Assembly (NCBI RefSeq): GCF_000016745.1
Contig: NC_009483.1
Span: forward strand, 930,001 to 962,000
Direction: 5' to 3'
From: Geotalea uraniireducens Rf4
GTDB taxonomy: Bacteria > Desulfobacterota > Desulfuromonadia > Geobacterales > Geobacteraceae
DNA length: 32,000 nt
This document shows positions 4,555 to 24,499 of the stretch, piece by piece. A program made the position numbers and the translations under genes. A model generated the notes under the pieces. That model was given only the letters and a program-made list of their open reading frames with translations, did not search any database and had not been told where the DNA came from. Position 1 is the stretch's first letter, and each line of letters starts with the position of its first letter.

Positions 4555-4807
4555 GGTCATATCCTCCTTTTTGTCGTAACACGGATTATATAAAAGTAGC
4601 ACGAAACGAATACAAAAATAATTTAAGTATGTCAATAAGTATTTGAGTATTTTTATGGGCGTCGGTTCGGAAGGGGCATTGTATTCACAGAGGGCGGCCG
4701 GCGTTGTAAACGAAAACCGGGGGAAAAGCGTTATTTAGTAGTTGACCATCAGCAGACGATTTGCAATAGTTACAAAAAATTCATCCGGCAGGGTGTGGAG
4801 GGTGGTA

Positions 4808-5989
4808 ATGAAACATTGCACTACGGTTATTCTCTTCGTCTCCATCTTGGTTGCATCGGTTATTTCCGGCAGGGCGGATTTCGATGCGGGCTTAAGGGCA
4901 TACAATGATGGCGACTACGCCACGGCCATGCGTGAATACAGGATAGACGGCAGCGCCAGGTCCCTTTTCAACCTCGGTCTCATGTATGCGGAAGGGAAGG
5001 GGGTCAATAAACGGAACAGCAGGGAGGCGATGAAATGGTATCGCAAGGCTGCTGAACAGGGTTTGGCGAAGGCTCAGTTTGCCCTTGGCCTCATGTACGC
5101 TCTCGGCGAGGATGTTGCCGCGGACAAGAAGGAGGCGGCCAGATGGTATCGTAAAGCCGCCGAACAAGGACATGCGGCCGCCCAGTACAATCTGGCGCAG
5201 ATGTATGCCAGGGGTGATGGCGTCAAGAAGGACGAAACGGAGGCCGATAAATGGTATCGCAAGGCTGCCGAGCAGGGGAATGCCGCAGCCCAGTTGAACC
5301 TGGCTCAGCTATACGAAAAAGGCGCAGGCGTTGTGCAGGATAAAAAAGAGGCGGCCCGCTGGTATCTCAAGGCCGCCGAACAGGGGAACGTGCGCGCCCA
5401 GTTCAGCATCGCCATGATGTACGACAAGGGGGACGGGGTCGAGCAAAACAAAAAGGAGGCTGCGCGATGGTTCCGCCGGGCCGCTGAGCAGAATCATGCC
5501 AAGGCCCAGTTCAAGATCGGCTTCCTGTACGATAAGGGTGATGGTGTCCTTCAGGACAAGAAAGAGGCGGTGAAATGGTATCGTAAGGCTGCCGAGCGGG
5601 GGGTGTCGGAAGCCCGGTTCAATCTCGGACTCATGTATTACGCCGGATCGGGTGTGCCGCAGGACAAGAAGGCGGCTGCACGGTGGTTCCGCAAGGCCGC
5701 CGACCAAGGGGATGTTGATGCCCAGTTCAACCTGGGGCACATGTACGACCAGGGGGACGGGATCAAGCAGGACAGGAAAGAGGCGGTGAAATGGTATCGC
5801 AAGGCCGCCGAACAGGGCTTCGATCAGGCCCAGTTCAATCTCGGTCTCATGTATTTCCATGGCTACGGCGTGAAACAGAACCGTAAGGAAGCCTTCAAAT
5901 GGTTTGTAAAAGCGGCTGAACAGGGCTCGGATGAAGCAGTGAAAACCTTGGAAGTCCTCGGCAGGGGGATGCCTCTGGCCCGGCCTTAA
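4808..5989 (+). CDS. secreted Sel1-like repeat (SLR/TPR-like) protein
   Basis: Start is the ATG at 4808 (MKHCTTVILFVSILVASVISG is a signal peptide), after GGAGGG. About nine consecutive 36-aa units of the form KEAxKWYRKAAEQGxxxAQFNLGxMYxxGxGVxQDKK appear as roughly 108-bp tandem DNA repeats. Confidence 0.9.
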   Translation: MKHCTTVILFVSILVASVISGRADFDAGLRAYNDGDYATAMREYRIDGSARSLFNLGLMYAEGKGVNKRNSREAMKWYRKAAEQGLAKAQFALGLMYALGEDVAADKKEAARWYRKAAEQGHAAAQYNLAQMYARGDGVKKDETEADKWYRKAAEQGNAAAQLNLAQLYEKGAGVVQDKKEAARWYLKAAEQGNVRAQFSIAMMYDKGDGVEQNKKEAARWFRRAAEQNHAKAQFKIGFLYDKGDGVLQDKKEAVKWYRKAAERGVSEARFNLGLMYYAGSGVPQDKKAAARWFRKAADQGDVDAQFNLGHMYDQGDGIKQDRKEAVKWYRKAAEQGFDQAQFNLGLMYFHGYGVKQNRKEAFKWFVKAAEQGSDEAVKTLEVLGRGMPLARP

Positions 5990-7232: not shown

Positions 7233-7488
7233 GGAATCCTCCTTATGATGGTCAACGAGTAAGAATTCTGCATCTGGGGCGCATACGGATTGCTATCCTT
7301 GCTGAACCCTGATAAACAGGATAAGTGCGTTAACGAAGTTATTTCCTGCCAGAAAAGCGCAGAAAATAATTTCTAACTCACTAATGACAGCATTGTAGCA
7401 CCTGAACGGAGGGTGCGCTATTCCGTGCTTGCTATTATTGCGTCTCAAATTACTCAATTTTACTCAACCACCGCACCTTGTGGTCTTT

Positions 7489-8325
7489 TCAATTCGTTAT
7501 TGACCGGTTCACGCGCGCATAACGCCGCGGCGATACTCCCAGCTCCTTGCGGAACATCTCGATGAAGGCGCTCAGGCTCTGGTACCCCAGATCGAAGGCG
7601 ATGCCCGTCACCTGCTCCCCCCGGTCCAGCCGGTCCAGCGCTTTGTGCAGCAAGAGGCGCTTGCGCCACCCCCCAAAGGTCAGTCCGGTCTCGCTGACGA
7701 AGAGCCGTGCCAGGGTGCGGCTACTGGCCCCGGCAATCTTCCCCCAGGCATCGAGACCGCGATTGTCGCCGGGGCTCTTCAGCAGAGCGTCAATCACCCG
7801 CATCACCCTCTCGTCCCGCGCCATCGGCAGGCGCAGCGGCGTCGCTTCGGCAATGCGCAACTCATCCAGCAGCACCTGCATCACCCGCCACTCTGCCCCA
7901 TCCGGCGCGTAGCTATTGCCGATCTGCACCGCTCTCAAAATCAGTTCGCGCAGAAGCGGTGCAACCTTCAGCACTGTGCACTGCAGCGGCAGACCGGTTA
8001 CTGCCGAGGGATCGACAAACAGGCTGCGCAAGGCGGTATCGCCGGGGAAATAGACCTCGTGCTCCTGATTGGGCGGTACCCAGACCGCCTGAGAGGGGGG
8101 GACCACCCAGACGTCCCGGCTGCAGATAACCCGCATCATCCCGCTGCTGGCGTAGATCAGTTGCCCCCGCGGATGGACATGGACCGCCGCACTCCCGATC
8201 TCCCGCGCCTGCATCTTCAGGGGGCTCACCTCAATTGCCAGCGAGATGACCGGCAGCTTTGCATCCAGCAGAAAGCCCTGCTCCACCGGCGGCAATCTTG
8301 TCAGTTTTGCGATATTCATTGGCAT
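7489..8325 (-). CDS. AraC/XylS-family transcriptional regulator with an N-terminal cupin domain
   Basis: The C-terminal dual HTH (SSRTLARLFVSETGLTFGGWRKRLLL ... IAFDLGYQSLSAFIEMFRKELGVSPRRY) is AraC-type. The N-terminal region has a cupin-like HxH segment. The start is uncertain (8325 or 8319; track start 8355) and there is no clear RBS. The last 11 codons are homologous to the class-B element (see findings). Confidence 0.85.
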   Translation of the reverse strand: MPMNIAKLTRLPPVEQGFLLDAKLPVISLAIEVSPLKMQAREIGSAAVHVHPRGQLIYASSGMMRVICSRDVWVVPPSQAVWVPPNQEHEVYFPGDTALRSLFVDPSAVTGLPLQCTVLKVAPLLRELILRAVQIGNSYAPDGAEWRVMQVLLDELRIAEATPLRLPMARDERVMRVIDALLKSPGDNRGLDAWGKIAGASSRTLARLFVSETGLTFGGWRKRLLLHKALDRLDRGEQVTGIAFDLGYQSLSAFIEMFRKELGVSPRRYARVNRSITN

Positions 8326-8439
8326 ACTATAGTAAGACAGCCAGATGAAAGTCAACTATACTGTTCATATCCACACGAAAAGGAGCACGCATATGATCCG
8401 TACCCATAAACAAGAGATCGTTGACCAAGAGGCACAGCC

Positions 8440-9243
8440 ATGAGCGATTTTTCCACCATTGCCTCCTTCTACAGAGAGAAGTCCCTGGTTCAGGCCAATG
8501 CGGGCAAACAGCTTATCGAACTACTGGAGATCGCGCCCGATACCGATATTCTCGATGTCGGCTGCGGCACCGGCAACCTGACGGCAGAGCTGCGCGAGAT
8601 TACCTCCGGCCGCGTGGTCGCCATCGACCCGGCCGAGGGGATGATCCGGCAGGCCCAAGCCCTTTATGGCAGCCAGGATATCGATTTCCGCATGGCCGAC
8701 GGCGATGCGCTGCCGTTCGACAACGAATTCGACCTGATCTTTTGCAGCTCGGTCTTCCAGTGGTTCCGGGAGCCGGCCGCCACCCTGGCGAACTTCGCGA
8801 AGGCGCTCCGTCCGGGAGGGAAGGTCGGGATACAGGCCCCGGCCACCAGCCGATTCTGCCCGAACTTCCTCGCAGCCATCGCACGCTGCCGCCGGGCGCC
8901 ACGGCTCGCCACCCTGTTTGCCGGATTCCGCTCTCCTTGGTTCTTCCGCGATTCGATCCACGAATACCGGACGCTGTTCGAGCAGGCCGGTTTCATCGTC
9001 ACCCACTGTCGCATCGACGAGACGCACCAGCGCTATACCGTGGACAAAGCCATCGACATCTTCAACTCCGGCGCGGCCGCAGGTTTTCTCAATCAGTCGT
9101 ACTATGCGGAGCCGCTACCGGCAGATTTCATTGAGCTGGTTTTGGAAGAGGTGAGGGCATCGTTCGAGGAACAGGCCGACGCTTCAGGGGAGATCGACCT
9201 GGTCTTTTACCGGCTTTTTGCGGTGATGCGGAACGTGGTGTGA
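8440..9243 (+). CDS. class I SAM-dependent methyltransferase
   Basis: Motif I ILDVGCGTGNLT, then FDLIFCSSVFQWF and LRPGGKVGIQ. The gene is divergent from the AraC regulator. Confidence 0.85.
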   Translation: MSDFSTIASFYREKSLVQANAGKQLIELLEIAPDTDILDVGCGTGNLTAELREITSGRVVAIDPAEGMIRQAQALYGSQDIDFRMADGDALPFDNEFDLIFCSSVFQWFREPAATLANFAKALRPGGKVGIQAPATSRFCPNFLAAIARCRRAPRLATLFAGFRSPWFFRDSIHEYRTLFEQAGFIVTHCRIDETHQRYTVDKAIDIFNSGAAAGFLNQSYYAEPLPADFIELVLEEVRASFEEQADASGEIDLVFYRLFAVMRNVV

Positions 9244-9427
9244 TGGTTCAGGGAAAGAGCTACGGAGCGGCATAAACCGGGCCGTTTGAAACCTTGCTGG
9301 AGTGGGATTTCATGGCGAAGGGAGAAGAGGCTTTGAAAAGAAAATTTTGAGCTATTTTTTTCTTATCCCATTTTGCAACATTGCAAGCCTGACCCGAGAT
9401 TTCGAGATTTTTCCCTATATTTGCAGG

Positions 9428-9455
9428 TTGACTTTGTACGTCACTGCCGTATAAT
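9428..9455 (+). promoter_or_regulatory. near-consensus sigma70 promoter driving the toxin-remnant/antitoxin locus
   Basis: TTGACT (9428-9433), a 16-nt spacer, then TATAAT (9450-9455). The ATG at 9462 is only 6 nt after the -10 box, so the transcript would be leaderless or nearly so. Confidence 0.55.
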
Positions 9456-9461
9456 CGGTGC

Positions 9462-9576
9462 ATGGTAACTTTTGTCGAATCGCCGCTGTTTACGAAGCAG
9501 GTTCATGATTACCTGACCGACGACGAGGACGATTCTCAAAACCCTCAAAGAGGAGATGGAACATGCGACTCAGTGA
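9462..9576 (+). pseudogene. internally deleted RelE/HigB-2-like toxin remnant
   Basis: The first 21 codons, MVTFVESPLFTKQVHDYLTDDE, resemble the N-terminus of HigB-2/RelE-type toxins encoded upstream of XRE antitoxins. From 9532 a different frame reads ILKTLKEEMEHATQ*, a plausible toxin C-terminus overlapping the antitoxin start. The 115 bp in total are roughly one third of an expected toxin gene. Confidence 0.45.
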
Positions 9577-9874
9577 AAAAGAACTGCTCGAACGCGATGC
9601 AAAACGTAACATCGGCGAGGAACTTCTCCAGGCTGTGCGGGACATAAAAGCTGGCAGGGTCGGGCGTGTTTCCACCATAGATGTTTCTCCCCTTGCGGCG
9701 GCCCGTCTCAAGATCGGCCTTTCTCAGAGCGAGTTCGCTCATTTGCTGGGAGTGTCTCTCCGAACCCTCCAGGAGTGGGAGCAAGGCCGTCGCACGCCAT
9801 CAGGCGCCGCGAAATCCCTCATCACCATTGCCATCAAGAAACCGGAAGTTCTAAAAGAACTGCTCGCCGCCTGA
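9563..9874 (+). CDS. XRE-family HTH antitoxin (HigA-2/NadS-like)
   Basis: RBS AGAGGAG. The HTH is LKIGLSQSEFAHLLGVSLRTLQEWEQGRRTPSGAAKSLI. The N-terminus MRLSEKELLERDAKRNIGEELLQAVRDIKAG is typical of this antitoxin family. Confidence 0.8.
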   Translation: MRLSEKELLERDAKRNIGEELLQAVRDIKAGRVGRVSTIDVSPLAAARLKIGLSQSEFAHLLGVSLRTLQEWEQGRRTPSGAAKSLITIAIKKPEVLKELLAA

Positions 9875-10065: not shown

Positions 10066-10314
10066 TCAGGCAGCACGCCCCATCTCTTCACGGATAACCT
10101 TGCGCAGGGTCTCTTCAAGATTGCCTGAATCCTTCGAGAGGTACTCTCGCAAAGCATCATTAATCAATGTCTGATACCCTTTGCCTGCCGCATCTGCACG
10201 AACACGGAACTCCTCGAGAATGGCGTCGTCAAGATAAATGGTAATCCGTGTCTTACCGGTTTGCGGCACAACAGCGCCACGCTTTGCTTTGGAAAAATCG
10301 TATTCAGCTTTCAT
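10066..10314 (-). CDS. brnA: BrnA-type antitoxin (CopG/RHH-like)
   Basis: MKAEYDFSKAKRGAVV ... TRITIYLDDAILEEFRVRADAAGKGYQTLINDALREYL is the characteristic BrnA pattern. It overlaps the stop of the upstream toxin gene by 11 nt. Confidence 0.85.
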   Translation of the reverse strand: MKAEYDFSKAKRGAVVPQTGKTRITIYLDDAILEEFRVRADAAGKGYQTLINDALREYLSKDSGNLEETLRKVIREEMGRAA

Positions 10315-10570
10315 AGTACTCCCTTTCTTTTGCGGTTGCCGGACGGGCCGAAATCATACGGATTTCTTCACCGCGGTATGAGAAGATGACAACAAGAAGC
10401 CTTCCTGTGGCATCCAAACCAATTGATATGAATCTCTGCTCTCCTTCCGCGTCCCTGTCTTCGCGCGTCAGGGCCATCGGGTCAAACAACACGGTTTCGG
10501 CATCGGAAAACCTGATCCCATGTTTGCGATAGTTGGTTGCAGCCTTGTTCGGGTCAAAGGTGATTTTCAT
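10304..10570 (-). CDS. brnT: BrnT-type ribonuclease toxin (DUF497)
   Basis: FDPNKAATNYRKHGIRFSDAETVLFDP ... RFISIGLDATGRLLVVIFSYRGEEIRMISARPATAKEREYY matches the BrnT/DUF497 family pattern. Confidence 0.85.
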   Translation of the reverse strand: MKITFDPNKAATNYRKHGIRFSDAETVLFDPMALTREDRDAEGEQRFISIGLDATGRLLVVIFSYRGEEIRMISARPATAKEREYYES

Positions 10571-10580
10571 GGCCTACCTA

Positions 10581-10609
10581 ATTGTATGTATTTTATATGC
10601 ATATGTCAA
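10581..10609 (-). promoter_or_regulatory. sigma70-type promoter of brnTA with a palindromic candidate operator
   Basis: The minus strand has TTGACA (10609-10604), a 17-nt spacer containing the palindrome ATATGCATAT, then TACAAT (10586-10581). The -35 box overlaps the MFS stop codon. Confidence 0.55.
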
Positions 10610-11892
10610 GGGTTGCCCCCACTGCCTCTCTGCACTTCTGACGCCGTCGCGGGCGTCGCATGGTGCTCGCTGCGGAAATGAAAATACGCCAAGGCCAGCG
10701 ATGCGGCTTGAAGCAGGGCGCAAAAATAGAACGGCGCGCCGATGCGCCAATCGCCGCGCTGCAAATGGGAAACCGTCGCAAGCAGCGGCGTGCTGAACAA
10801 GGGGGCCACTACCGCCATCAGGCTGTTCAGGGAGTTGACCGCCCCCAACGCCTGCCCCTGGCTTTGGGAGTCGGCGGCGCTGGAAATTATGCTTTGCAGC
10901 GACGCAGTAACCGTATAGCTAAGCAGATTCAGGAAGATTACTGCGTACATCATCCAGCCCTGGTTGGCTATGCCCCACAATATGTAGGCGATCGACGACG
11001 ACGCCAGTCCGGCAACCACAAGGCGTCGCGGACTAAAGCGTTTCAGCAGCCGTCCGAGCAGAAAACCCTGCACGACCAACGACATGATGCCGACCGCTGC
11101 GAGCGACCAGCCGTTTTCACGCGGTCCCCAGCCGAACTTGAAGGTCGTGTACAACACCCAACTGGTGAACAGCACGAATTGGGCAAGTCCGCTCAACGCA
11201 ACCACGGCGACCAATCGGCCGACACCGCTCAGCCGGGTCAGCGCGCGTAGCGACACGAGCGGGTTTGCCATCCGCCAGTGGAATGGGCGCCGGCGCTCGG
11301 CAGGGAGCGACTCGGGTAACACAAAATAGCCGTAGAGCCAGTTAATCATTGCAAAGGCGCCGGCGACGAAAAACGGGAGCTGTATGGTGATTGCGCCCAG
11401 CAGCCCGCCCATCACCGGCCCGACGATGAAGCCAACGCCGAACATCGCGCCCAACATGCCGAAACGCCTGGCACGCTCTTCGGGAACGGTGATATCCGCC
11501 ACATACGCGTTAGCCACGGCCGCATTGGCCTGCATCGCACCGCCCACCAGCCGCACCGCAATCAGCATCCACAACGCCGTGGAGAGCCCTGTTGCGAAAA
11601 AATTGAGGCCGAGTCCGCAAAAACCGAGCAAGAGCAACGGGCGGCGACCGTAAGCGTCGGACAGCGCACCGAGGATCGGCGAAGCGAAAAAATTCGCGAT
11701 TCCGAACGCGAACACCACGACGCCATACCAGAACGCCTGATTTGCTTGTGAGTCGGTGAAACTTCCGACCAACGACGGCAACACGGGAATGATCAAACCG
11801 ATAGACACCATGTCGATCAGCACGGTCAACATGATGAAAGGCATGGCCGCTGTGCGGTCGCGACGGGGCGAAAATAATTTGAAATTAATCAC
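10606..11892 (-). CDS. MFS efflux transporter, TetA/TCR-like (12 TM)
   Basis: MLTVLIDMVSIGLIIPVLPSLV and GALSDAYGRRPLLLLG (MFS motif A-like) resemble the TetA class. The start is uncertain: GTG at 11892 or ATG at 11844. The first 35 codons or so lie inside the 116-bp duplication. Confidence 0.85.
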   Translation of the reverse strand: MINFKLFSPRRDRTAAMPFIMLTVLIDMVSIGLIIPVLPSLVGSFTDSQANQAFWYGVVVFAFGIANFFASPILGALSDAYGRRPLLLLGFCGLGLNFFATGLSTALWMLIAVRLVGGAMQANAAVANAYVADITVPEERARRFGMLGAMFGVGFIVGPVMGGLLGAITIQLPFFVAGAFAMINWLYGYFVLPESLPAERRRPFHWRMANPLVSLRALTRLSGVGRLVAVVALSGLAQFVLFTSWVLYTTFKFGWGPRENGWSLAAVGIMSLVVQGFLLGRLLKRFSPRRLVVAGLASSSIAYILWGIANQGWMMYAVIFLNLLSYTVTASLQSIISSAADSQSQGQALGAVNSLNSLMAVVAPLFSTPLLATVSHLQRGDWRIGAPFYFCALLQAASLALAYFHFRSEHHATPATASEVQRGSGGNP

Positions 11893-11904
11893 GCTTAAAT
11901 ACTC
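11789..11904. repeat. 116-bp perfect direct repeat, left copy (part of the intact MFS gene)
   Basis: Checked base by base: identical to 16769-16884 at an offset of exactly 4980 bp. The flanking bases differ on both sides (11788 a vs 16768 c; 11905 g vs 16885 t). Confidence 0.95.
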
Positions 11905-11985
11905 GATCCTTTAGTTCGAAAAAAACTACGTCTCCGGCCGTCAAACCTGGAACTGCCCGGATGTCGCCTTTCTTTGTCGCTTCTG

Positions 11986-12042
11986 CCCAATTCGGCTTCG
12001 CAAATGACCTGCACGATTCCGTGTCAGATCAATTTGTTGGTT
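11986..12042 (-). other. degenerate attC-like site closing the RsgA cassette
   Basis: Minus-strand reading: GAACCAAC aaat TGATCTGACACGG aatc GTGCAGGTCA tttgcgaagccga ATTGGGC. It shares CTGAC.CGG, GCAGGTCA and AGCCG..TTGG with the 13261-13329 site. The R'' box CCAAC complements the GTTGG that starts the cassette. The R' box has decayed from GTT to ATT. Confidence 0.35.
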
Positions 12043-12133
12043 CAATCGTATCCTTCTCTTCAGGTTCCAAGAGTTGGAATATTCTTTTGCTTGTAAATGT
12101 GAATATGTGAAGGGCGTCCCCTATGCATCTATC

Positions 12134-13216
12134 TTATTTACGTGTGATTCCCAGATCTTTCTTGGCAGACTTGATGTAGCGACCAAATGCCTTATCCTTT
12201 TTTCGCTTTTCAAGATACGACAGATCATGAAACTCTGATTCACTCCTGAGTTTGATAAAGTTCTGATAGTGTGCCCGATGGAGACTTCCTTCCTCAATTG
12301 CACTCAAAACAGCACAACCTGGTTCGTTAGAGTGAGAGCAATCACTATATTTGCATTTCGATGCTAACGCATAGATATCAGCAAAGCTGTCGCCCATTCC
12401 TTCCTCAGCTCCTAAAATGCCAAATTCACGCATTCCTGGGTTATCTATCAACATTGCACCATTATCCAATATTATGAGTTCGCGACGCACCGTCGTATGT
12501 CGTCCCTCGCCTGTACCACTTACCACCTTGGTTTCAAGTATATGACGGCCAATCAACTGGTTGATCAATGTACTCTTGCCAACCCCTGATGAACCTAAAA
12601 GACAGTAGGTTTTTCCGGGCTGTAGAATTTCACGTACATTATTAACACCTTCGCCGGTGACGTTACTAAGCGCGATTACCTCCGTATTTATTCCAGCACT
12701 TCTAATTTTTTCTATTAGTTGTTGGAGAGTTTCAGGACTGACCAGGTCAGTTTTTGTAAGTAAAACGACAGGATGTACATGCCCATTTCTAACCATTACC
12801 AAGTAACGCTCAAGCCTGTTAACATTGAAGTCGAAATGACAGGCCTGGACTATTAAGGCTACGTCAATATTCGAGGCAATCATCTGGTATTCAATGATAT
12901 CTCCTGCAGCCTTACGACGAAGAACCGACTTTCTAGGAATGACGTCATGAATTATTCCATACATGTCAGAGGTGCTGTATTGAATGCATACCCAGTCTCC
13001 AACACATGGAAGATCAATTGATTGCTCGGTCATATATAGAAAACGGCCGGCAAGCTTTGCGCGAAATTCACCAGACTCATCTATTACAAGAAGTTGATCA
13101 CGATCCACAGCAACAACACGTGCAAGACGGTGTTCTGCCGAGCCCTTTTCATGTGCCTTTGCATCAAACCATTCATCCCATCCAAATTGATTTAGTTGTT
13201 CAGAAGCAGAGCTCAT
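12134..13216 (-). CDS. rsgA: RsgA/YjeQ-family circularly permuted GTPase (cassette-borne paralogue)
   Basis: The motif order G4 LLTKTDL, G1 GSSGVGKSTLIN, G3 DNPGMREF is the RsgA circular permutation. The C-terminal zinc knuckle is CKYSDCSHSNEPGCAV. The preferred start is the ATG at 13216, 7 nt after GAGGT; the track start (GTG at 13261) lies inside the attC R' box. The gene is AT-rich. Confidence 0.8.
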   Translation of the reverse strand: MSSASEQLNQFGWDEWFDAKAHEKGSAEHRLARVVAVDRDQLLVIDESGEFRAKLAGRFLYMTEQSIDLPCVGDWVCIQYSTSDMYGIIHDVIPRKSVLRRKAAGDIIEYQMIASNIDVALIVQACHFDFNVNRLERYLVMVRNGHVHPVVLLTKTDLVSPETLQQLIEKIRSAGINTEVIALSNVTGEGVNNVREILQPGKTYCLLGSSGVGKSTLINQLIGRHILETKVVSGTGEGRHTTVRRELIILDNGAMLIDNPGMREFGILGAEEGMGDSFADIYALASKCKYSDCSHSNEPGCAVLSAIEEGSLHRAHYQNFIKLRSESEFHDLSYLEKRKKDKAFGRYIKSAKKDLGITRK

Positions 13217-13260
13217 TTGACATACCTCAAAATGTACAGATTTTTTTCTCATTACTTTCA

Positions 13261-13329
13261 CGCCAACGGCTCACGGCGTGACCTGCGCGGCGCTGTTTGC
13301 CGCGTCAGAGTCTACGCCGCGGGTTATGC
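13261..13329 (-). other. attC-like recombination site
   Basis: Minus-strand reading: GCATAAC ccgc GGCGTAGAC tctgac GCGGC aaacagc GCCGC gcag GTCACGCC gtgagcc GTTGGCG. The stop codon TAA of the upstream ORF lies inside the R'' box. The 46-nt core differs at 2 positions from the site at 13951-14018. Confidence 0.7.
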
Positions 13330-13935
13330 AATTTTATAAATTATAGGGATAGCTATACCGTAAGCAACTGTAAGTACCCCAAGCGCTTCGGCTTTAACTC
13401 CACCAACAATTGCCGCTTTTAAATTAGTGTTAATTTCATTTATATCAGTTTTGATTGTGTTTATCTTTATACTTATTCTATCTTCAGAAGTCCTAATATC
13501 CCTTTTAAGTTCGTCTCTTGTTTTGTCGATTTTGTCATGAATTCTATTTACTTCTTGCAAGAGAAATTCAACTTTTTCTTCAGTATTTTTATGGCCAGGA
13601 ATCAGTCTTGCGTCGTATATCCCGCTGGCACTGAGAAGGGAATCAACTTGGAGGTTCACAGATTTTTGCTTGGCAATTAGGGGAAACCTCTTCAACCAAT
13701 CAAATATTGAATTTTTGATACTAGTTTTGGATACAATTCCAAGGTTACTATTGATCACCCAAATAATAATTAGGCCACCAATAATTTGAAATGCTGCACT
13801 AAAATTTGAATTTATTATCTGATTGTGAGATTGAAATATTCGTAGTGAGAAGAGGTGCACTGATACAAAAACTGGGAAGAGATGAAGAGGCCATGGTTCA
13901 ATTGACCATTTATATAATCTTTTAATTACCTTCAT
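13324..13935 (-). CDS. hypothetical membrane protein with a coiled-coil middle region (cassette ORF)
   Basis: 203 aa with RBS AGAGGGGAGAA. It has N-terminal TM helices, a charged coiled-coil segment (EEKVEFLLQEVNRIHDKIDKTRDELKRDIRTSEDRISIKINTIKTDINEINTNLK) and a C-terminal TM helix. It is very AT-rich, and I recognise no family. Confidence 0.7.
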   Translation of the reverse strand: MKVIKRLYKWSIEPWPLHLFPVFVSVHLFSLRIFQSHNQIINSNFSAAFQIIGGLIIIWVINSNLGIVSKTSIKNSIFDWLKRFPLIAKQKSVNLQVDSLLSASGIYDARLIPGHKNTEEKVEFLLQEVNRIHDKIDKTRDELKRDIRTSEDRISIKINTIKTDINEINTNLKAAIVGGVKAEALGVLTVAYGIAIPIIYKIA

Positions 13936-13950
13936 TTCTCCCCTCTTTTG

Positions 13951-14018
13951 CGATAACGTGTCGTGGCGTGACCTGCGCGGCGGTGTTTGCCGCGTCAGTG
14001 TCTACGCCGGTGTTGGCA
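13951..14018 (-). other. attC-like recombination site
   Basis: Minus-strand reading: TGCCAAC accg GCGTAGAC actgac GCGGC aaacacc GCCGC gcag GTCACGCC acgacac GTTATCG. It begins 6 nt after the stop of the 477-aa ORF and ends 15 nt before the start of the next ORF. Confidence 0.7.
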
Positions 14019-14023
14019 GCAGT

Positions 14024-15457
14024 CTATTTCCCGGATTTCGCTGTTGCCAAGACACCTACCAAAGATTTTGTCAGAGTCCGTTTTTCGGCACATTCGGATA
14101 TTTTGTCGTATCCATATTTGGTCATCAGGGCGAAAGGAGCGGCGGTTGCAAGAAATGGTGCAAGGGCTGGAAATAAACCAACTCCTGTAGCTGCGATTGC
14201 CATCACAGCAGTTTGGCCGTGAATTCGTCTATATTTTTCCTTTATGTCTCTTTGCTGCTTCTCATGCTCTGCAATTGCAATGGTAATCTCATGGCAGACC
14301 TCTGCTGCAACCTTATCTATATCTGTAAGAACCGATTCATGTAATCTGCCAACGGCATCTTGTAGCCGTTTTCGAAAGCCGACGTTCTCGTTGTCTTCTC
14401 TCAGTCGTATTAATGTATCAATTGATATATCGCCCAGCCAATCAAGTCTCTGAGAGGCGAGAGCTTCAATCAAGGCATTGGTTCTGGGGTTTATTAGACC
14501 AGTCTTTTCGAGTCGGGCATTGTTGGCGGTAGCAACTATCTTGTAATAGTGTGCGTGTTGATCGAGGCACATAAGCGGATGACAACCAAGTTCTTCCGCG
14601 TTTTCTAACAGATGATATTGTGGGGTAAGGCGTTCACAGATCCCGTTAAAGACACGTTGATGCTCCGGGATTCGTGCAAATATATCCAGCCACTCTTTTG
14701 ATCGCCACGTCTCCATCTCCACTTGGTATCGCTGCAATGCATCCACAAGAGGCTCATCAACAGGCCCTCCTGGCGCGACAAAAAGATGATTTCTGTCTAC
14801 GGTTGATAGAAATTTCTCGGGGTTTCGGTTTGCATAATCGAGAACCTCTTCAAGAGTTTCAAGTTTCTCATCAAGGGAGGCAGAGAACACACAACCAATA
14901 AGATGTGAAATCCCATCCTTTGTGTACTCATCTTTATCCTCTAAGATCTTTTCCATGCTCGGGAAAACGAGGACGGCGGGGTTCTGGAAGTTAGCGTCTA
15001 TGAGTGGTTTTATATGCAGGAGAGCATGAACGTTCTGAATTAAAGAGACGTGACGGAATTTTTCTTCCGTTCTTTCACGCTCAAGCCAAGGCATTACGGG
15101 GTCAGGAACGAAAACCGTGTCGCTATACAGGATACTTGTCGAGACAGAGTTCAATTGGCTTCCGAGGAATCGGCTGCCACCACCAAGAACTAATTTCATA
15201 CCGCCAAGCTGCTTTGCTAGGCGGAATGCTTCACCAGCATTCTTTCCATACAGTTGACGGAGTTGCTCTTCTAACCAAACGAAAGCATCCCAACTCCTTG
15301 GCGCAATTTGCTGGGCACGGGAACGAATTGTATCGGCGAAGTTGTCAATAGTACTGAAAGCAGTTGCTGTACTGCCGGTAGCCCTGATAAAGAACTCGTC
15401 AAGGATGGAAAAGAACGTTCGCTCATATTCTGTGATTAGTTTTATTGGGTCTTGCAT
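14024..15457 (-). CDS. hypothetical 477-aa protein with a C-terminal hydrophobic/TM segment (cassette ORF)
   Basis: Long ORF with RBS GAGGAAGGA. The C-terminus TAVMAIAATGVGLFPALAPFLATAAPFALM looks membrane-inserting. I recognise no conserved catalytic motif. AT-rich. Confidence 0.75.
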   Translation of the reverse strand: MQDPIKLITEYERTFFSILDEFFIRATGSTATAFSTIDNFADTIRSRAQQIAPRSWDAFVWLEEQLRQLYGKNAGEAFRLAKQLGGMKLVLGGGSRFLGSQLNSVSTSILYSDTVFVPDPVMPWLERERTEEKFRHVSLIQNVHALLHIKPLIDANFQNPAVLVFPSMEKILEDKDEYTKDGISHLIGCVFSASLDEKLETLEEVLDYANRNPEKFLSTVDRNHLFVAPGGPVDEPLVDALQRYQVEMETWRSKEWLDIFARIPEHQRVFNGICERLTPQYHLLENAEELGCHPLMCLDQHAHYYKIVATANNARLEKTGLINPRTNALIEALASQRLDWLGDISIDTLIRLREDNENVGFRKRLQDAVGRLHESVLTDIDKVAAEVCHEITIAIAEHEKQQRDIKEKYRRIHGQTAVMAIAATGVGLFPALAPFLATAAPFALMTKYGYDKISECAEKRTLTKSLVGVLATAKSGK

Positions 15458-15473
15458 TTCCTTCCTCGATTCA

Positions 15474-15566
15474 TGACAACTCCCTTATTCACCGGTTCAA
15501 CACGCGCGCATGAACCGGTGATCTACCCAAACGGAACATTTAATCTGTGAACATGAACAAAATAGA
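15474..15566 (-). other. class-B boundary element, copy 1 (palindrome-bearing, ends in GTTGTCA at the cassette start)
   Basis: Perfect 9-bp hairpin ACCGGTTCA acacgcgcgca TGAACCGGT. The 46-nt core at 15509-15554 is identical, apart from one position, to 24971-25016. The minus-strand 3' end GTTGTCA is a 6-of-7 complement of the R'' box TGCCAAC of the next attC-like site. Confidence 0.6.
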
Positions 15567-15567
15567 C

Positions 15568-16620
15568 TAAGGGTCAGGTCTACATTCTACACTTTTCAAA
15601 CTTTCCCTTTATCTTCTCGACCTTTCTTCCCAGCACCTCATCCGTCTCCATTTTCCTGACAAGCCTTCTGCTCGCTTCACTTATCGCCGTATCTCGTACG
15701 TTGAAGCGATCTCCTATTTCCTGAAGTCTCATTCCGCTGTATTTATGGCAAAGATAGATGCACACCTGCCTCGCTAGCTTTTCGTTGCCATGCAATGCCG
15801 CTATTGCTTCCTTCATGATTTCTTCCGGCGATGGCCTGTTGGCAAAATGCTTCAGCGCCGGAATATTCGCGTCTTCCTTTTCCCGGATATGCGCCGTTGA
15901 TATTTCATCTATAAAGTCGGCGCTCCCCAATATCGATCCACCGAAGATTTTGCTCAAAGGGCTTTCGTATTCTTTGCCGATCATATTTTCAACAAAGGTC
16001 CTGTACTTTTTCCGAGCGTCCGCTTCTTTCTTTGCAAAGCATCCTAGGATAAAACCGGTTCTCAGCCATGCTGGCGGTTTGCTTTGCCCAATGAAGCTTT
16101 GGTAGCTGGACCATTGGTAGTGCTCTGGCCTTTCGACGATTCCGGCTTTGACCGGGTTCAGGTGTATGTAGCGGGAAAGCTCCGCCAGGTATTCATCGGC
16201 CTCGACAAGGATCGCCTTGTATCTACCCTGGAACAGATGACCCGACCTCTTTCTTTTGACGTTGAAGTAGGTCGTGTATGCCCCGTTTATGTGTCGCATT
16301 ATCTGCGATAGGTTACCGGATGGTGTTTCCAGCAACAGATGGTAATGGTTGCTCATCAAACAATAGGCGTGAACTACCGCCCCGTACCGCTCCGTTGCCG
16401 ATGCAAGATATTCAAGAAACTTCTCCCGATCCCTCCGGCTTTTGAATATGTCCTTCTTTTCATTCCCACGCGACGTGACATGATAAAACGCTCCCGGATA
16501 CTCGATGCGTAAAGGTCGTGCCATTGCTCTCTCCTTTGAGCGATTGAGTGTAACGTATGGAGTTGCCCTCTATCATATCAAAGAATTCTGGTTTTGTGTA
16601 GAATGTAGACTTGACCCTTA
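15568..16620 (-). mobile_element. compact Y1-transposase element bounded by 25-bp inverted repeats
   Basis: IR-L at 15568-15592 is TAAGGGTCAGGTCTACATTCTACAC. The reverse complement of IR-R at 16596-16620 is TAAGGGTCAAGTCTACATTCTACAC, 24 of 25 identical. A single ORF lies inside, and its last codons are within IR-L. Confidence 0.7.
15580..16524 (-). CDS. IS200/REP-associated (RAYT-like) Y1 HUH transposase fused to a DnaA-domain-IV-like HTH
   Basis: YHVTSRGN, the HUH motif SNHYHLLLE, and the catalytic-Tyr region LSRYIHLNPVKAG. The C-terminal ARQVCIYLCHKYSGMRLQEIGDRFNVRDTAISEASRRL resembles the DnaA C-terminal DNA-binding domain. Confidence 0.85.
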   Translation of the reverse strand: MARPLRIEYPGAFYHVTSRGNEKKDIFKSRRDREKFLEYLASATERYGAVVHAYCLMSNHYHLLLETPSGNLSQIMRHINGAYTTYFNVKRKRSGHLFQGRYKAILVEADEYLAELSRYIHLNPVKAGIVERPEHYQWSSYQSFIGQSKPPAWLRTGFILGCFAKKEADARKKYRTFVENMIGKEYESPLSKIFGGSILGSADFIDEISTAHIREKEDANIPALKHFANRPSPEEIMKEAIAALHGNEKLARQVCIYLCHKYSGMRLQEIGDRFNVRDTAISEASRRLVRKMETDEVLGRKVEKIKGKFEKCRM

Positions 16621-16649
16621 TTGCCCTGTGTGACCCTTATTGCCCTGTG
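16612..16649 (+). repeat. tandem REP-like 19-mers, TGACCCTTATTGCCCTGTG x2
   Basis: Two perfect adjacent copies at 16612-16630 and 16631-16649. The first overlaps the outer end of IR-R. Confidence 0.85.
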
Positions 16650-16768
16650 TTCTTAAAAGCTCCTTTTTACCAGAAAAAACGTGGCTCTAAGGCCATAATC
16701 AGGGCCTATGTTGGCCAATAGATGCTATATTTCAGTTGGTTAACTTGGTCCGACCCCATGGAGACCCC

Positions 16769-16872
16769 ATGATCAAACCGATAGACACCATGTCGATCAG
16801 CACGGTCAACATGATGAAAGGCATGGCCGCTGTGCGGTCGCGACGGGGCGAAAATAATTTGAAATTAATCAC
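16769..16872 (-). pseudogene. orphan 5' fragment (about 35 codons) of the MFS transporter gene
   Basis: It encodes (V/M)INFKLFSPRRDRTAAMPFIMLTVLIDMVSIGLII, identical to the start of 10606-11892. Homology then stops abruptly at 16768. Confidence 0.85.
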
Positions 16873-16884
16873 GCTTAAATACTC
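16769..16884. repeat. 116-bp perfect direct repeat, right copy
   Basis: Identical to 11789-11904. It starts 10 bp after the stop of the radical SAM gene. Confidence 0.95.
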
Positions 16885-19407: not shown

Positions 19408-19564
19408 GGCATTCATAAGGGGTCTACCATGCGGTTCATTCAGAAAAACGATTCAAAATCGTCAGGGCATTCATAAGGGGTCAAGCCTTAAAGAGGGAAA
19501 TATATGAAAATATTTTGACAGATTTAAAATTCCCTTTTCAATGCCTGACCCCATTCATTCTGAC
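19408..19564. repeat. cluster of REP-like repeats (GGCATTCATAAGGGGTC x2 plus an inverted relative)
   Basis: 19408-19424 and 19466-19482 are identical 17-mers. 19546-19564 (TGACCCCATTCATTCTGAC) is an imperfect inverted relative. The core TAAGGGGTC relates them to the Y1-element IRs. Confidence 0.65.
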
Positions 19565-19647
19565 TGCCTAATTTGCTACGGAAGAACCTAAGGGGGCAGC
19601 CCTTGGTGCGCCGGTAGGCGGCGGGTCCCCCCCCAGGCGCAACGTCA

Positions 19648-22600
19648 CTAGAAATTCCCTAGAATGGTACCTGACTCTCCTACGACTACAAAATGGCCAC
19701 TCCCATCATATGAGACCCCGTTCAAGTTGTTCGTGGTATAGGAGGCTCTCTTCGTCCAAGTGACACCATCGGGCGAAGTCAAAAGGTATCCTGAATCCCC
19801 AACCACAACGAACTGGCCACCTCCATAGGATACGCCGGACAGTTTGCTGGTAGTCCCGGATGTGCGGCTTGTCCAGAGAATGCCATCATTCGAGGTCAGC
19901 ACGGTGCCAGCTTCGCCGACGGCGACATACTGGCCACCACCATAGGTTGCCCCATACAGTGAGTAGATAGTACCGGAAGCCCTGTTGGTCCAGGCCACGC
20001 CATCTGGTGATGTCAAAATGGAACCGCTTGCACCCACCGCAACAAACTGACCGCCACCATAGGTGACACGAACCAGGTTCTGTGTCGTCCCCGAAGCGCT
20101 GAGCGTCCAGGAAACGCCGTCGGGGGAGGTGAGGATCGCTCCTGCTGCACCGACCAAAACAAACTGGCCGCCTCCATAGGCGACGCCACTAGAGGAAGTC
20201 GCAGTAGTATGACCCGTCCATGTTACGGAATCAGGCGAAGTCAAGATAGAAGCCCAGGTCACCCCGAGATATATTCCGTTTCCATAGGCGATGTCGGTCA
20301 CGGGACTGCCCGAACTGCTATTGCGATCTGTCCAGGTGACACCATCGGGCGAGGTCATTATGACACCCTTACCTCCAGACCACCCGACTGTCACGAATTC
20401 GCTGCCGGTGAACATCACGCCGGATAGCTTGTTTGTTGTGCCGGAGGTGGACGCCCAGGTAGTGCCATTGGAGGATATAAGGACCGTTCCAGCGTCGCCG
20501 GTCGCCACTGACTGGCCGTTCACATTGTTCACGCCATTCAGGTTTTTCTGCGTGCCGGAGAAGTAATTGGTCCAGGTGATACCGTCAGGAGAGGTCTGGA
20601 TCGCGCCGCTTAGACCCACGGCAATGAACTGGGCGCCATCGTAGGTCACTGCGATGAAGCTCGGCTTGAAAGACATGCCTACCGAAGGCACCCAGGCCGC
20701 CGACTGTGTTGCCCAGTCGACGCCATTCAGGGAAGTCAGCACCGTCCCTGCATTTCCTACCGCGACAAATCGCCCACCTCCGTAGGTTACGCCGTTCAGG
20801 TTGATGGTCGTTCCCGAGGACCGGCTCGTCCACGTGACACTGTCGGCAGAAGTCAGGATGAGGCCGGAATTCCCGGAGACAACATACTGGTTACTGCCGT
20901 AGGTGATGTCGCGCAAATGCGTGGCTGTGCCGGAGGAACGGCCGGTCCAGACGATACCGTCGGCGGACGTCAGGATCGTGCCGGAGTTACCGACCACTAC
21001 AAACTGACCGCCGGTATAGATCGTTCCCGTCAAGTTGGCCGTGGTTCCAGAGGCTCTAATCTGCCAGGTTGCACCGTCACTGGAGGTCAGAATGACGCCC
21101 GAATCGCCGACTGCGACAAACTGGCCACCGCCATAAACCACACGAGTCAAATTGGCTGAAGTCCCGGAGTTTTGAATGCTCCAGTTGCTGCCGCTATCTG
21201 AAGTGGCGATAACTCCCGCAGTACCTACCGCAACAAATTTGCCCGCGCCGTAGGCGACGTTGTCCAGGTTGTTACCGCCGGTCCTTGGGCTGAGCCAGTA
21301 CCAGTTACTGACATTTATCGCCGATCCTCCAGTTGTGCCACCAGTGCCGCCGGTGTAGCCTCCGGAGTAACCGCTGCTACCGCCAGTACCGCCAGTACCG
21401 CCAGTACCGCCAGTGCCGCCGGAATTGCTGGAACCGCCACTGCCGGAAAAGACGGTTTCATCACTATGGTAGAAGCTACGGTAGAGTTGCCAGCTGGCAC
21501 CATCCGACTGGCTCCAGGCTATGGCTGTATCCCCGGTTCCATCCATGGCTACGTCGTAATTGACATAGTTCAGCTGGTCATTACTCACTGCCAGGAGGTT
21601 TTTATCGGTCCAGGAGCCGTTAAGGTACTGCATTGTATATACCTGCCAGTCTGCACCATTGGCCTGGTTCCAAAGGAGAATCCCATTGCCGCTGTGATCC
21701 ATTTTTATCAGGGGGCGGTTGGCCGAGGTCGCAGCAGAGCTGACTTGTCTGGGTGAATTCCATGTGCCTGCTCGCGATTCGACAATGACTATCTGCCACA
21801 GGTTATTAACCTTCTGTTGCCACGCTACGACGGCATTGCCGCGACTATCCATGGCAACACGGGGATAATCAGTTTCCGCACCGCCGGAATCGAGCAGAGC
21901 CGGACCGGTCCACGCACCATTGCGGTATTCGTTTCTGTAGGCGTGACGCTGGATGCCATCCTGCTGCCCCCACACGATGATAGCCTCGTTATTGCTGTCA
22001 AACGATAGCTGGAAATACGAATCCGGGTCCTGGCCTGCTATACTGACTATTTGCGGAGTACTCCAAAGTCCGTTTAAGCGTTGCCTGCTGAACAACTTGA
22101 CGTGAGTATAATAATGATCATTGTACTGCCAGGCTATTACCTGGTTCCCTTTTGAGTTCAGCGCCACCTTAGGGGAATTACAGCTACCCCCAGCTGAGAC
22201 CGCCACCGGATTGCTCCATGCACCGTCAGCATACTCCTTTGCGTAGATATTATCCTGTGACCATACTATAACGGCCCTGCCTTCGTCATTCATCGCGATT
22301 GACGGCGATAGGGATCCCGGAGAAAAGGACACGCCGGAAGCTGTAATCACTTGGGGCTGGCTCCAGAGCCCGTTCCGGTACTCCATCATTACTACTCCAG
22401 TTCCCCAATCCTCCCAGACCAGAACTGCATTGCCGTTGTTATCCATGGCAACCTTAGGCGAATAAACGTTAGAAGCGTTCCCGCTGACGACCCTAGGCTC
22501 GGTCCAGGTTCCATCAGCCAGTTGACTCATGACAATTTCATAATGGCTATTGGTGCTGTTATATCTCCACCACGCGACGATGGCGTTGCCGTGCTTATCC

Positions 22601-23070
22601 ATGGCTGTCACGGCACTATTTGCCTTGCCGAAGTTTTCTGTACTGTCCCACTGACTGGTTTTAGTTGTAAAGCCAGTGGTGTATTCTCCGGGCAGTGTGC
22701 CGCCGTAAATGCTTTTTATGGTGGCGGCGACTTTAACCGTGTATCTTCTGCCGGCGGAAAGCTTATTTTTCAGCTTCAAGGTGGCAGTATTGCCGTTTAC
22801 TACAACCGTATCAGCTTCGACTGGGAAGCCTTGGTCATCCTTTACAGCAATTGCACCAGCAGTAACCGTATTAGCATCCAGGTTTGCGTCAAAGGAAACT
22901 GTTATGTCGCCGGTCCTGGTTACCTCAGTAGCTCCGTCTACTGGGGTGACACTTGCTACCTTCAGCTCGACAGGCACAGGCGTAGAGGCGGTTCCGCTGG
23001 AACCGCCGCCACAGCCAAATAAAGAAATCGCCAGAGATATCAGTAGTAAAAAATCCAGTCGTTTTTTCAT
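19648..23070 (-). CDS. 1140-aa surface lipoprotein: Ig-like (SbsA/Big-like) domain plus two different beta-propeller-type repeat arrays joined by a Gly/Thr/Ser linker
   Basis: Lipobox LISLAISLFGC. The N-terminal VASVTPVDGATEVTRTGDITVSFDANLD is Ig-like. Next come repeats of the D..GNA.(I/V)VW type, then the linker GSGGSSNSGGTGGTGGTGGTGGSSGYSGGYTGGTGG. About 18-20 units of W(T/S)..(S)SGT...L.GV.YGGGQFVAVG..G.ILTS.DG..W follow, resembling Ycf48/BNR-like propeller blades. Confidence 0.85.
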   Translation of the reverse strand: MKKRLDFLLLISLAISLFGCGGGSSGTASTPVPVELKVASVTPVDGATEVTRTGDITVSFDANLDANTVTAGAIAVKDDQGFPVEADTVVVNGNTATLKLKNKLSAGRRYTVKVAATIKSIYGGTLPGEYTTGFTTKTSQWDSTENFGKANSAVTAMDKHGNAIVAWWRYNSTNSHYEIVMSQLADGTWTEPRVVSGNASNVYSPKVAMDNNGNAVLVWEDWGTGVVMMEYRNGLWSQPQVITASGVSFSPGSLSPSIAMNDEGRAVIVWSQDNIYAKEYADGAWSNPVAVSAGGSCNSPKVALNSKGNQVIAWQYNDHYYTHVKLFSRQRLNGLWSTPQIVSIAGQDPDSYFQLSFDSNNEAIIVWGQQDGIQRHAYRNEYRNGAWTGPALLDSGGAETDYPRVAMDSRGNAVVAWQQKVNNLWQIVIVESRAGTWNSPRQVSSAATSANRPLIKMDHSGNGILLWNQANGADWQVYTMQYLNGSWTDKNLLAVSNDQLNYVNYDVAMDGTGDTAIAWSQSDGASWQLYRSFYHSDETVFSGSGGSSNSGGTGGTGGTGGTGGSSGYSGGYTGGTGGTTGGSAINVSNWYWLSPRTGGNNLDNVAYGAGKFVAVGTAGVIATSDSGSNWSIQNSGTSANLTRVVYGGGQFVAVGDSGVILTSSDGATWQIRASGTTANLTGTIYTGGQFVVVGNSGTILTSADGIVWTGRSSGTATHLRDITYGSNQYVVSGNSGLILTSADSVTWTSRSSGTTINLNGVTYGGGRFVAVGNAGTVLTSLNGVDWATQSAAWVPSVGMSFKPSFIAVTYDGAQFIAVGLSGAIQTSPDGITWTNYFSGTQKNLNGVNNVNGQSVATGDAGTVLISSNGTTWASTSGTTNKLSGVMFTGSEFVTVGWSGGKGVIMTSPDGVTWTDRNSSSGSPVTDIAYGNGIYLGVTWASILTSPDSVTWTGHTTATSSSGVAYGGGQFVLVGAAGAILTSPDGVSWTLSASGTTQNLVRVTYGGGQFVAVGASGSILTSPDGVAWTNRASGTIYSLYGATYGGGQYVAVGEAGTVLTSNDGILWTSRTSGTTSKLSGVSYGGGQFVVVGDSGYLLTSPDGVTWTKRASYTTNNLNGVSYDGSGHFVVVGESGTILGNF
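21379..21414. repeat. 9-bp microsatellite (ACCGCCAGT)x4 inside the lipoprotein linker
   Basis: Four perfect tandem copies on the plus strand encode the TGG repeats of the linker. Confidence 0.9.
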
Positions 23071-23346
23071 TGTGCCCTCGGTACTAAATCGCGATTAGAT
23101 AATAAAGAAATAATTCAGACGCATCAAAAACTTCACTATTCATTTTCGGTGGCAACAACCGGGACGCCCATGAACATCGCTTACATCCGCTCAACCAACC
23201 CTCATAAGCTTTCTTGGCACTCAGTGAGGTCTCAGGCTTGGCCACGCTCTGCATCGAGAATCGTACCAGCAGTTGATTGAACCGGTAAGGACAAAAGAGT
23301 CAATGCAAATGCAGGTTTTAGTAAATGGCTTATTATTTTGTTTCCC

Positions 23347-24419: not shown

Positions 24420-24436
24420 ATCCTTCCCTCGCTTCT

Positions 24437-24496: not shown

Positions 24497-24499
24497 GTC

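Follow-up and report, generated by a model that had tools for sequence, protein, structure and literature searches.

attC site clusters without an integron-integrase (CALINs) are defined as two or more attC sites that share a strand, lie less than 4 kb from each other and have no intI gene nearby, and both their origin and their service by remote integrases are an open point in integron biology (PMC4889954). Integrases are already known from Geobacter, and intI pseudogenes are common (PMC2426708). The DNA analysed here, referred to as the window, is a 32,000-nucleotide stretch of the Geotalea uraniireducens Rf4 chromosome (NC_009483.1, positions 930,001 to 962,000), for which an earlier note, made from the letters alone, had proposed an array of integron-type gene cassettes. 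Our analysis supports this proposal: the region is very probably a CALIN-type integron cassette array that starts at a conserved head element and was later inserted, head included, where it now lies. The structure of the attC sites, a crossover footprint that runs through their family, the linkage of family members to integrases, and an insertion that can be set against an empty site in a close relative are all read from the sequences and carry this conclusion.

The first array consists of three open reading frames (ORFs) on the minus strand, confirmed at 14024-15457, 13324-13935 and 12134-13216. The first two are each followed, in the same orientation, by a G+C-rich palindrome: attC1 (13951-14018, minus strand, 68 nt; R'' box TGCCAAC, R' box GTTATCG) and attC2 (13261-13329, minus strand, 69 nt; R'' box GCATAAC, R' box GTTGGCG). 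Both palindromes are real, have a 46-nt core in common with 2 differences, and lie inside the 57-141 nt length range of attC sites, and the next ORF begins 15-44 nt after the R' box. The earlier note had placed the ORF starts 15-45 nt past the R' box, and the distances measured after the three GTT boxes are 15, 44 and 16 nt. Likewise, the stop codon of the second ORF (TAA, 13326-13324) does fall within the R'' box GCATAAC (13329-13323). The suggestion that every gap holds an attC-like palindrome stands for attC1 and attC2, in both of which the AAC and GTT of the boxes RYYYAAC and GTTRRRY are present, but not fully for the third site. This last site, attC3 (11985-12046, minus strand; R'' box AACCAAC at 12042-12036), is decayed: it keeps the conserved 3' arm CAGGTCA, has a disrupted R' box (G-AA-TTGGGC) and folds weakly. 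The G+C content of the cargo (12000-16000) is 38-46%, against 55-65% in the flanks and the rest of the window, which bears out the strong AT-richness that had been sampled before.

Folding of the bottom strands with DNA parameters, a check that the earlier note had proposed, gives long stems as single-stranded DNA (z about -3 relative to shuffled sequences) with three bulged bases. Each of the three consists of one base, and all lie on the 3' arm of the window plus strand, spaced 3 bp and 3 bp apart; in the 68-nt sites they fall at positions 16, 20 and 24 from the 3' end of R'', 6 bp from first to last. VCR2 (a Vibrio cholerae repeat) and attCoxa2 show the same pattern of extrahelical bases (PMC5027507, Nivina et al.). 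Since the bulges are on the plus strand, the top strand of these sites is the minus strand, the same as that of the ORFs, as in ordinary cassettes.

A degenerate pattern derived from the 46-nt core and run on a collection of species-representative genomes matched 22 stretches, nearly all of them from Geobacter, Geomonas, Desulfuromonadales or Desulfoprunum. Each aligned copy is framed, at fixed distances, by xxxxAAC and GTTxxxx, the similarity ends exactly at the boxes, and a ribosome binding site (RBS) and start codon follow on the coding strand just past the GTT. The AAC and GTT are conserved in 23-25 of 25 sites (alignment A1). The part of the outer stem that lies outside the search pattern has four pairs with compensatory changes, a number reached in none of 500 shuffles (mean 0.4). 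The palindromes are not scattered away from ORF boundaries, as generic repeats might be, and are restricted to the 3' ends of coding-strand ORFs.

Two covariance models were used, R1 built from 25 family sites and R2 from a broader set. The scores of attC1 are 84.3 bits with R1 and 80.8 bits with R2, those of attC2 are 76.3 and 75.5 bits, and those of the decayed attC3 are 12.1 bits (E 0.06) and 20.4 bits (E 0.001). The 76-84 bits of the strong sites are reached on the minus strand; the plus strand gives at most 15 bits (9.7 bits for attC1 with R1), so that the difference between the strands is 60-75 bits (R1/R2).

The detail that the earlier note considered decisive, complementarity between the R' box of one site and the R'' box of the next, is present in the window (GTTGTCA against TGCCAAC, 6/7; GTTATCG against GCATAAC, 5/7; GTTGGCG against AACCAAC, 5/7), and it becomes stronger rather than fading when more copies are included. 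Four variable box positions were compared in 36 adjacent site pairs from 23 contigs, the window among them. Between the R' box of one site (n) and the R'' box of its neighbour (n+1), 2.89 of the four positions agree on average and 14 of the 36 pairs are perfect, compared with a mean of 1.44 (perfect in 3 of 80) for the R' and R'' boxes of the same site and a mean of 1.42 (perfect in 2.3%) for random pairs. The junctions of the window agree at 6/7, 5/7 and 5/7 in the first array and at 7/7 and 6/7 in a second array described below. We take this pattern to be the footprint left by G|TT exchange between independent cassettes.

Members of the family also occur beside integron integrases. Locus L076, which was retrieved only after R2 had been built, is a complete integron: an intI gene annotated 'integron integrase' is divergent from an array of six R2 hits, each of which lies between two ORFs, and the attI junction ...CTACTAATATG|TTGGGT (G|TTGGGT) agrees with ACCCAAC, the R'' box that comes first. 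In L013 a frameshifted intI is divergent from an array of family sites; in L012, from Desulfoprunum, an intI is co-directional with the cassettes and adjoins family sites; and L015 has an intI remnant near them. The family sites in these three loci show matching junctions as well. With the L013 integrase as query, the close homologues (the best 87% identical) are annotated 'integron integrase'.

No tyrosine recombinase was found in the 32-kb window by a scan for the box II motif, by tblastn with two IntI sequences or by Pfam searches of the larger ORFs, in agreement with the earlier note, and the sequence free of integrase genes extends from the first array for at least 12 kb in both directions. 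The window therefore has no intI adjoining an attI and cassettes, as a complete integron would, and a cluster of attC sites without intI in 32 kb fits the published definition of a CALIN (PMC4889954); so does a second cluster, with sites at 24437-24496 and 23347-23418. The earlier note had left open a CALIN or a displaced fragment of an array; both are partly true, since the array is a CALIN by definition and the block that holds it is also a strain-specific insertion in comparison with a relative (L077, see below). A search for intI elsewhere in the genome, which had been asked for, is answered by the IntegronFinder 2.0 table: a lone In0 element, that is, an intI gene with no attC sites called around it, is listed for strain Rf4, and an integrase is therefore encoded elsewhere in this genome. 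For G. lovleyi the same table has In0 entries, and for G. metallireducens it has one complete integron besides an In0.

Both arrays of the window begin with a conserved element of about 80-100 nt that contains a hairpin, called D12 here. At the head of the first array, D12a (15474-15557, minus strand; TAAATGTTCC..GGGTAGATCACCGGTTCATGCGCGCG..GAACCGGTGAATAAGGGA-G|TTGTCA) contains a hairpin of 10-11 bp and runs up to its G|TT junction with cassette 1, and its 7-mer GTTGTCA is the one that agrees at 6/7 with the reverse complement of the attC1 R'' box. D12b (24938-25019, minus strand; ending ..CTGGTCAATAACGA-G|TTGTGT) is 95% identical to D12a and heads the second array, where GTTGTGT is the exact reverse complement of the next R'' box, ACACAAC. 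The hairpin at 15474-15557 had been taken for an attC-type site in the earlier note. This was not borne out: in either orientation D12 is without an R'' box and has its GTT and AAC on the wrong sides of the hairpin.

D12 is found in 48 metagenome contigs and in L014 (Geobacter sp. UBA698), always with the layout TAAATGTTCC-N4-GGGTAGATCACCGGTTCAYGCGCGCG-...-GGTCAATAAC-N2-3-G|TT, past which comes unrelated sequence that has an RBS and an ATG. In L014 it heads an array with two perfect junctions. Of the non-redundant heads, 29 have at least 700 nt of sequence downstream, and for 17 of these R2 matches an attC downstream on the same strand; in these 17 the 7-mer after D12 agrees with the first R'' box at a mean of 2.5 of the four variable positions, and six are perfect. 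Exact matches of 7/7 at the head junction occur in L014, L029, L035, L049, L068 and the second array of the window. Because the 7-mer that follows D12 matches the first downstream R'' box, cassettes would join at the G|TT of D12 as they do at attI. The attI junction of the integrase-linked L012 (GCTAATAAC-TT-G|TTAGAA) has a core shape like the AATAAC-NN-G|TT of D12. Thus, D12 has the head position and the G|TT crossover of an attI site; what it lacks is adjacency to a cognate intI, for which a motif scan and tblastn gave no hit at any of about 50 loci.

The genes identified upstream of D12 heads are either housekeeping genes, for a Memo-like protein, a major facilitator superfamily (MFS) transporter, an HtrA-like protease, a DEAD-box helicase, a phosphoglycerate mutase and a methyltransferase, or a gene for an ISL3-family transposase, and no protein family common to them was found. 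In the copies of class A the left edge of the D12 unit is also G|TT, for instance CTGGTCAATAACGG|TTGCATGGCTAAT in L060, where what precedes it is left over from an older head. Two conserved motifs upstream of D12, TGCTAATAT and TATAAT, are no more than suggestive of a promoter. In one subclass of heads (L038, L039, L040, L051, L055 and L063) there are several copies of a palindrome, GGCATCTAATATTAGATGCC, together with TATAAT, about 170 nt upstream of D12, and these palindromes look like operators or accessory binding sites. Two further identities were considered for D12 and rejected. A tRNA-derived site was suggested by L042, in which D12 abuts sequence resembling a tRNA 5' half (3700-3800; it has the D-arm and the anticodon stem and breaks off in the anticodon loop), yet ARAGORN finds no tRNA gene there; and the lengths do not fit a dif-like site. 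A literature search with D12 sequence strings returned no paper.

The second array, also on the minus strand, comprises D12b, a cassette 1 ORF at 24500-24913 (137 aa, DUF2007), an attC at 24437-24496 (R'' box ACACAAC, R' box GTTGGCG; R1 15.7 bits, R2 27.0 bits, E 9e-6), a cassette 2 ORF at 23535-24419 (DUF2971; the likely ATG is at 24419) and an attC at 23347-23418 (R'' box TGCCAAC, R' box GTTGGAT; R1 24.3 bits, R2 37.8 bits, E 3.7e-9). The R'' box TGCCAAC of the last site agrees with the preceding R' box GTTGGCG at 6/7. This array can be compared with L077, a metagenomic relative that is syntenic with the window and 96-98% identical to it. At the corresponding site L077 has the last 12 nt of the head only (CTGGTCAATAAC) and then one different cassette, whose attC (5315-5383) scores 45 bits, and the shared sequence restarts exactly at the TT of G|TT. 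Cassettes have thus turned over between close relatives at this site, and closely related heads in the window, L077 and L060 are followed by three different cassette contents. The strain comparison that had been proposed, for presence and absence of cassettes with boundaries at G|TT, therefore holds for the second-array site against L077; it does not hold for the outer junctions of the first array, which are not G|TT.

A third copy of the head is represented by a remnant (7490-7522, minus strand; GCGCGCGTGAACCGGTCAATAACGA-ATTG) fused to the 3' end of a 288-aa ORF at 7489-8355. This ORF, whose last codons run into the remnant, is held in a 2.5-kb segment (7289-9767) that is missing in L077. The second array itself is included in a 5.5-kb segment (19509-25038) that stands in place of 490 nt of L077. 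That segment also encodes a protein of 1140 aa (19648-23070) that has an Ig-like domain and internal repeats of 117 nt, and its right-hand junction is without a preceding attC.

The first array lies within a 4864-nt insertion (11905-16768) that holds a RAYT gene, the head, the three cassettes and the decayed attC, and is bracketed by a 116-nt direct repeat. The upstream copy (16769-16884) consists of the sequence just 5' of an MFS transporter gene and the first codons of that gene; the downstream copy (11789-11904) is continuous with the intact gene (10606-11892). The two copies are identical to each other (116/116), each agrees with L077 at 111 of 116 positions, and in L077 the MFS gene comes directly after a radical SAM gene, a single copy of the 116 nt being present. 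The comparison with this empty site marks the RAYT gene and the array as a strain-specific insertion in the 5' end of the MFS gene. Since neither outer junction is G|TT, some other route must have brought the block here, and candidates are a circle integrating by homology and the repair of staggered breaks. A search around other D12 arrays found no flanking direct repeats, and the 116-nt duplication is therefore particular to this insertion. Directly 3' of the MFS gene, ORFs at 10066-10570 match by position a BrnT/BrnA toxin-antitoxin pair annotated in L077.

The RAYT gene (REP-associated tyrosine transposase, where REP stands for repetitive extragenic palindrome; 15580-16524, minus strand) encodes a Y1/HUH transposase (PF01797, 1.8e-15; NF047646, 92 bits against a cutoff of 80) with an unusual DnaA_C-like helix-turn-helix domain at its C-terminus. 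It is flanked by 25-nt inverted repeats (I2; 15568-15592 and 16596-16620). Although it adjoins the array, an enzyme of the Y1/HUH type is separate from the integrase-type tyrosine recombinases and from integron machinery. Just outside its right inverted repeat, a 19-nt unit, CACAGGGCAATAAGGGTCA, is present in two tandem copies (16621-16660).

Within the cargo of the first array, the cassette 1 ORF (14024-15457, minus strand, 477 aa) has zero matches in Pfam, NCBIfam and PADLOC, and its AlphaFold2 model, although confident (pLDDT 84.9), has no significant match in a PDB fold search (best E 0.16). It has 248 homologues at E<=0.001, whose neighbours vary by locus and include other cassette arrays (L072/L073); the arrays that hold these homologues use other attC types, as in L072. 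The cassette 2 ORF (13324-13935, minus strand, 203 aa) has no family match, and the cassette 3 ORF (12134-13216, minus strand, 360 aa) encodes a paralogue of the RsgA-type circularly permuted GTPases (PF03193 at 2.3e-48; TIGR00157, 171 bits against a cutoff of 100). None of the three cargo proteins matched a defence system in PADLOC, and neither did RAYT. For an RsgA paralogue and two proteins without an assigned function, an applied importance is not evident.

These observations can be accommodated in the following model. Three promoterless single-gene cassettes, each ending in an attC site, lie head to tail on the minus strand. In established integron biology the integrase folds the bottom strand of attC into a hairpin and exchanges strands between the G and the TT of R'; here that strand would be the plus strand of the window. 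The cassettes would have been delivered to the D12 head by an integrase encoded elsewhere, and the RAYT gene, head, cassettes and decayed attC later landed in the 5' end of the MFS gene, duplicating 116 nt and leaving no G|TT junctions. An integrase acting in trans, an attI-like function of the head and activity at the present day would all be parts of this model.

Several points weigh against this interpretation. The main one is that G. uraniireducens Rf4 has no CALIN entry in the IntegronFinder 2.0 table, so that both arrays are uncatalogued in that census. The silence of the table suggests that the generic attC covariance model misses these sites, and their asymmetric spacer, about 2 nt on one arm and 6 nt on the other, is a possible cause. 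In canonical attC sites the spacer that separates the R and L boxes has 5-6 unpaired nucleotides on each arm (PMC5027507). In the minimum-energy fold of the sites described here the spacer of the R'' arm has only about 2-3 unpaired nucleotides, against 6 on the R' arm; the arms become 5 and 9 nt if the spacer is taken to include three predicted pairs. At the first bulge the base is T, where G is usual. The R1 and R2 scores of the two strong sites are circular because both models were built from the family itself, and the independent support is that of L076, L077 and the crossover statistics. As for the head, the attI-like role proposed for D12 is inferred from its junctions, its core AAC is not invariant (GATCTAC-GA-GTT occurs, for example), and a simple sigma-70 scan found no promoter upstream of it. 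Finally, the lone Rf4 intI may be inactive, and the last attC of the first array is decayed.

The last two points lead to the most serious alternative, namely that the attC sites are real but the array is a dead fossil, a piece of a one-time integron that was brought here passively and on which no integrase could act, with D12 a leftover attI or platform rather than a working landing pad. Its imperfect cross-boundary matches (6/7, 5/7, 5/7), the non-integron transfer of the block, which duplicated 116 nt, and the D12 remnants at 7490-7522 and at the corresponding L077 site would all be expected of a fossil, as would the general frequency of intI pseudogenes (PMC2426708) and the decay of intI in L013 and L015. 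Against this, attC1 and attC2 are intact and near consensus at 76-84 bits, related heads in the window, L077 and L060 are followed by three cassette contents, the genome does encode an intI according to the IntegronFinder 2.0 table, and the strong conservation of D12 across about 50 loci argues for selection. We regard a wholly dead array as possible but less likely.

The neighbouring RAYT gene raises a second alternative, that the palindromes are REP elements, or the REPIN elements formed from them, spread by this transposase and unrelated to integrons. REPs are G+C-rich intergenic palindromes, the RAYT gene with its inverted repeats directly adjoins the array, and these repeats have a short GTCAG(N)GTCTAC string in common with the attC 3' arm. 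However, the RAYT-flanking repeats (GTGTAGAATGTAGACYTGACCCTTA) differ in sequence from the attC palindromes, which, unlike REPs, always lie at coding-strand ORF 3' ends with AAC/GTT boundaries and the crossover signature. The same palindrome family adjoins integron integrases in L076, L013 and L012, the ORFs that flank heads in other loci have no protein family in common, RAYT included, and the comparison with L077 shows that RAYT came with the inserted block. A REP origin is very improbable on these grounds. Equally implausible is a single operon, such as a defence or stress module, with regulatory or terminator hairpins: the genes are co-directional, tightly spaced and alike in low G+C content and have apparently a single upstream leader, but this explanation fails because homologues of the cassette 1 ORF have other neighbours and never adjoin the other two genes in the contexts examined, and in addition PADLOC has no matches for the cargo, the hairpins are without T-tracts, and the hairpin family lies 3' of unrelated genes in at least 22 genomes.

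Within the cassette-array interpretation, a more far-reaching arrangement can be proposed tentatively, as one that we consider possible but not the probable outcome. Geobacter-type integrons would be 'distributed', a lone In0 intI serving many chromosomal D12 landing pads in trans. D12 may then be a portable attI, a mobile unit of about 100 nt that seeds arrays downstream of ordinary genes, is bounded by G|TT in the class A copies, may carry a promoter-like -10 element and has an attI-like core at its end. If so, this architecture has gone unnoticed so far, the standard model missing both the attC type and the arrays. The data also suggest that several Geobacter 'In0' calls hide uncatalogued cassette arrays with a non-generic attC geometry. 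Two arrays and a remnant with the same type of head in 32 kb, about 50 more loci with this head and without an integrase, and different cassettes behind one head in near-identical genomes make D12 a testable candidate for an insertion site served in trans.

Several other features of the window deserve mention. A 27-nt direct repeat (25073-25099 and 28458-28484, 96% identical) surrounds a segment of about 3.4 kb that contains a flavoprotein gene, a weak cytochrome c3-like ORF (under the Pfam cutoff) and a 307-aa gene. In L060 the sequences matching both sides of this segment are about 22 nt apart, and it may be a second repeat-flanked insertion. An Rfam scan of the window at the gathering threshold, and of 23200-25200 at E<=1, detected only two cobalamin riboswitches, the palindromes and D12 being unmatched; the riboswitches are in tandem on the minus strand at 1437-1611 and 1706-1897 (68.5 and 109.9 bits). 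Seven tandem 108-nt repeats, 63-72% identical, lie at 5024-5925 within an ORF at 4742-5989, a region that L077 has too, and 311 nt at 28760-29070 with two CxxCxxCxxxCP ferredoxin-type motifs are missing in L077.

Comparison with known systems helps to place the locus. REP/REPIN-RAYT systems likewise combine a RAYT gene and inverted repeats, as in the inserted block, with G+C-rich extragenic palindromes; they differ in that the attC-like palindromes of the window are not RAYT repeats and carry integron-specific features. Sedentary chromosomal arrays such as those of the Vibrio VCRs have near-identical attC sites, a clade-wide attC family and cargo that is AT-rich relative to the host, as observed here, and the extrahelical bases of VCR2 lie at the same 16/20/24 positions. 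In contrast to such arrays, there are only 2-3 cassettes per array here and no adjacent intI, the spacer is asymmetric, and the first bulge is T and not G.

With the attI sites of L012, L013, L076 and L015, D12 shares its place at the array head, the G|TT crossover and a 7-mer that comes from the first cassette. The core of attI1 is AAC-AAA-GTT, which the D12 core AATAAC-NN-GTT resembles. D12 differs from these sites in that it is never beside intI at any of its loci, has a conserved 14-17-bp hairpin, and is spread over many chromosomal positions that are unrelated to one another, in some cases with decayed copies in tandem. The sites called attG, on the other hand, are loosely defined GTT-containing sequences. 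Insertion at attG likewise places cassettes away from a platform, presumably delivered by IntI in trans (bioRxiv 10.1101/2022.09.11.507474), but the landing point here is one specific conserved 80-100-nt element.

The closest match is the CALIN (Cury et al. 2016, PMC4889954), with which the first array shares three same-strand attC sites less than 4 kb apart, promoterless single-ORF cassettes mostly without an assigned function, and no intI or intI pseudogene nearby, the lone intI of this genome being elsewhere. The difference is that the arrays described here start at a conserved and widespread head that would act as the insertion point. To our knowledge, CALINs with such a head have not been described. 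An attI-like head without an integrase, its wide spread, the turnover of cassettes behind it and an attC family that the standard tool apparently misses set this locus apart from an ordinary CALIN.

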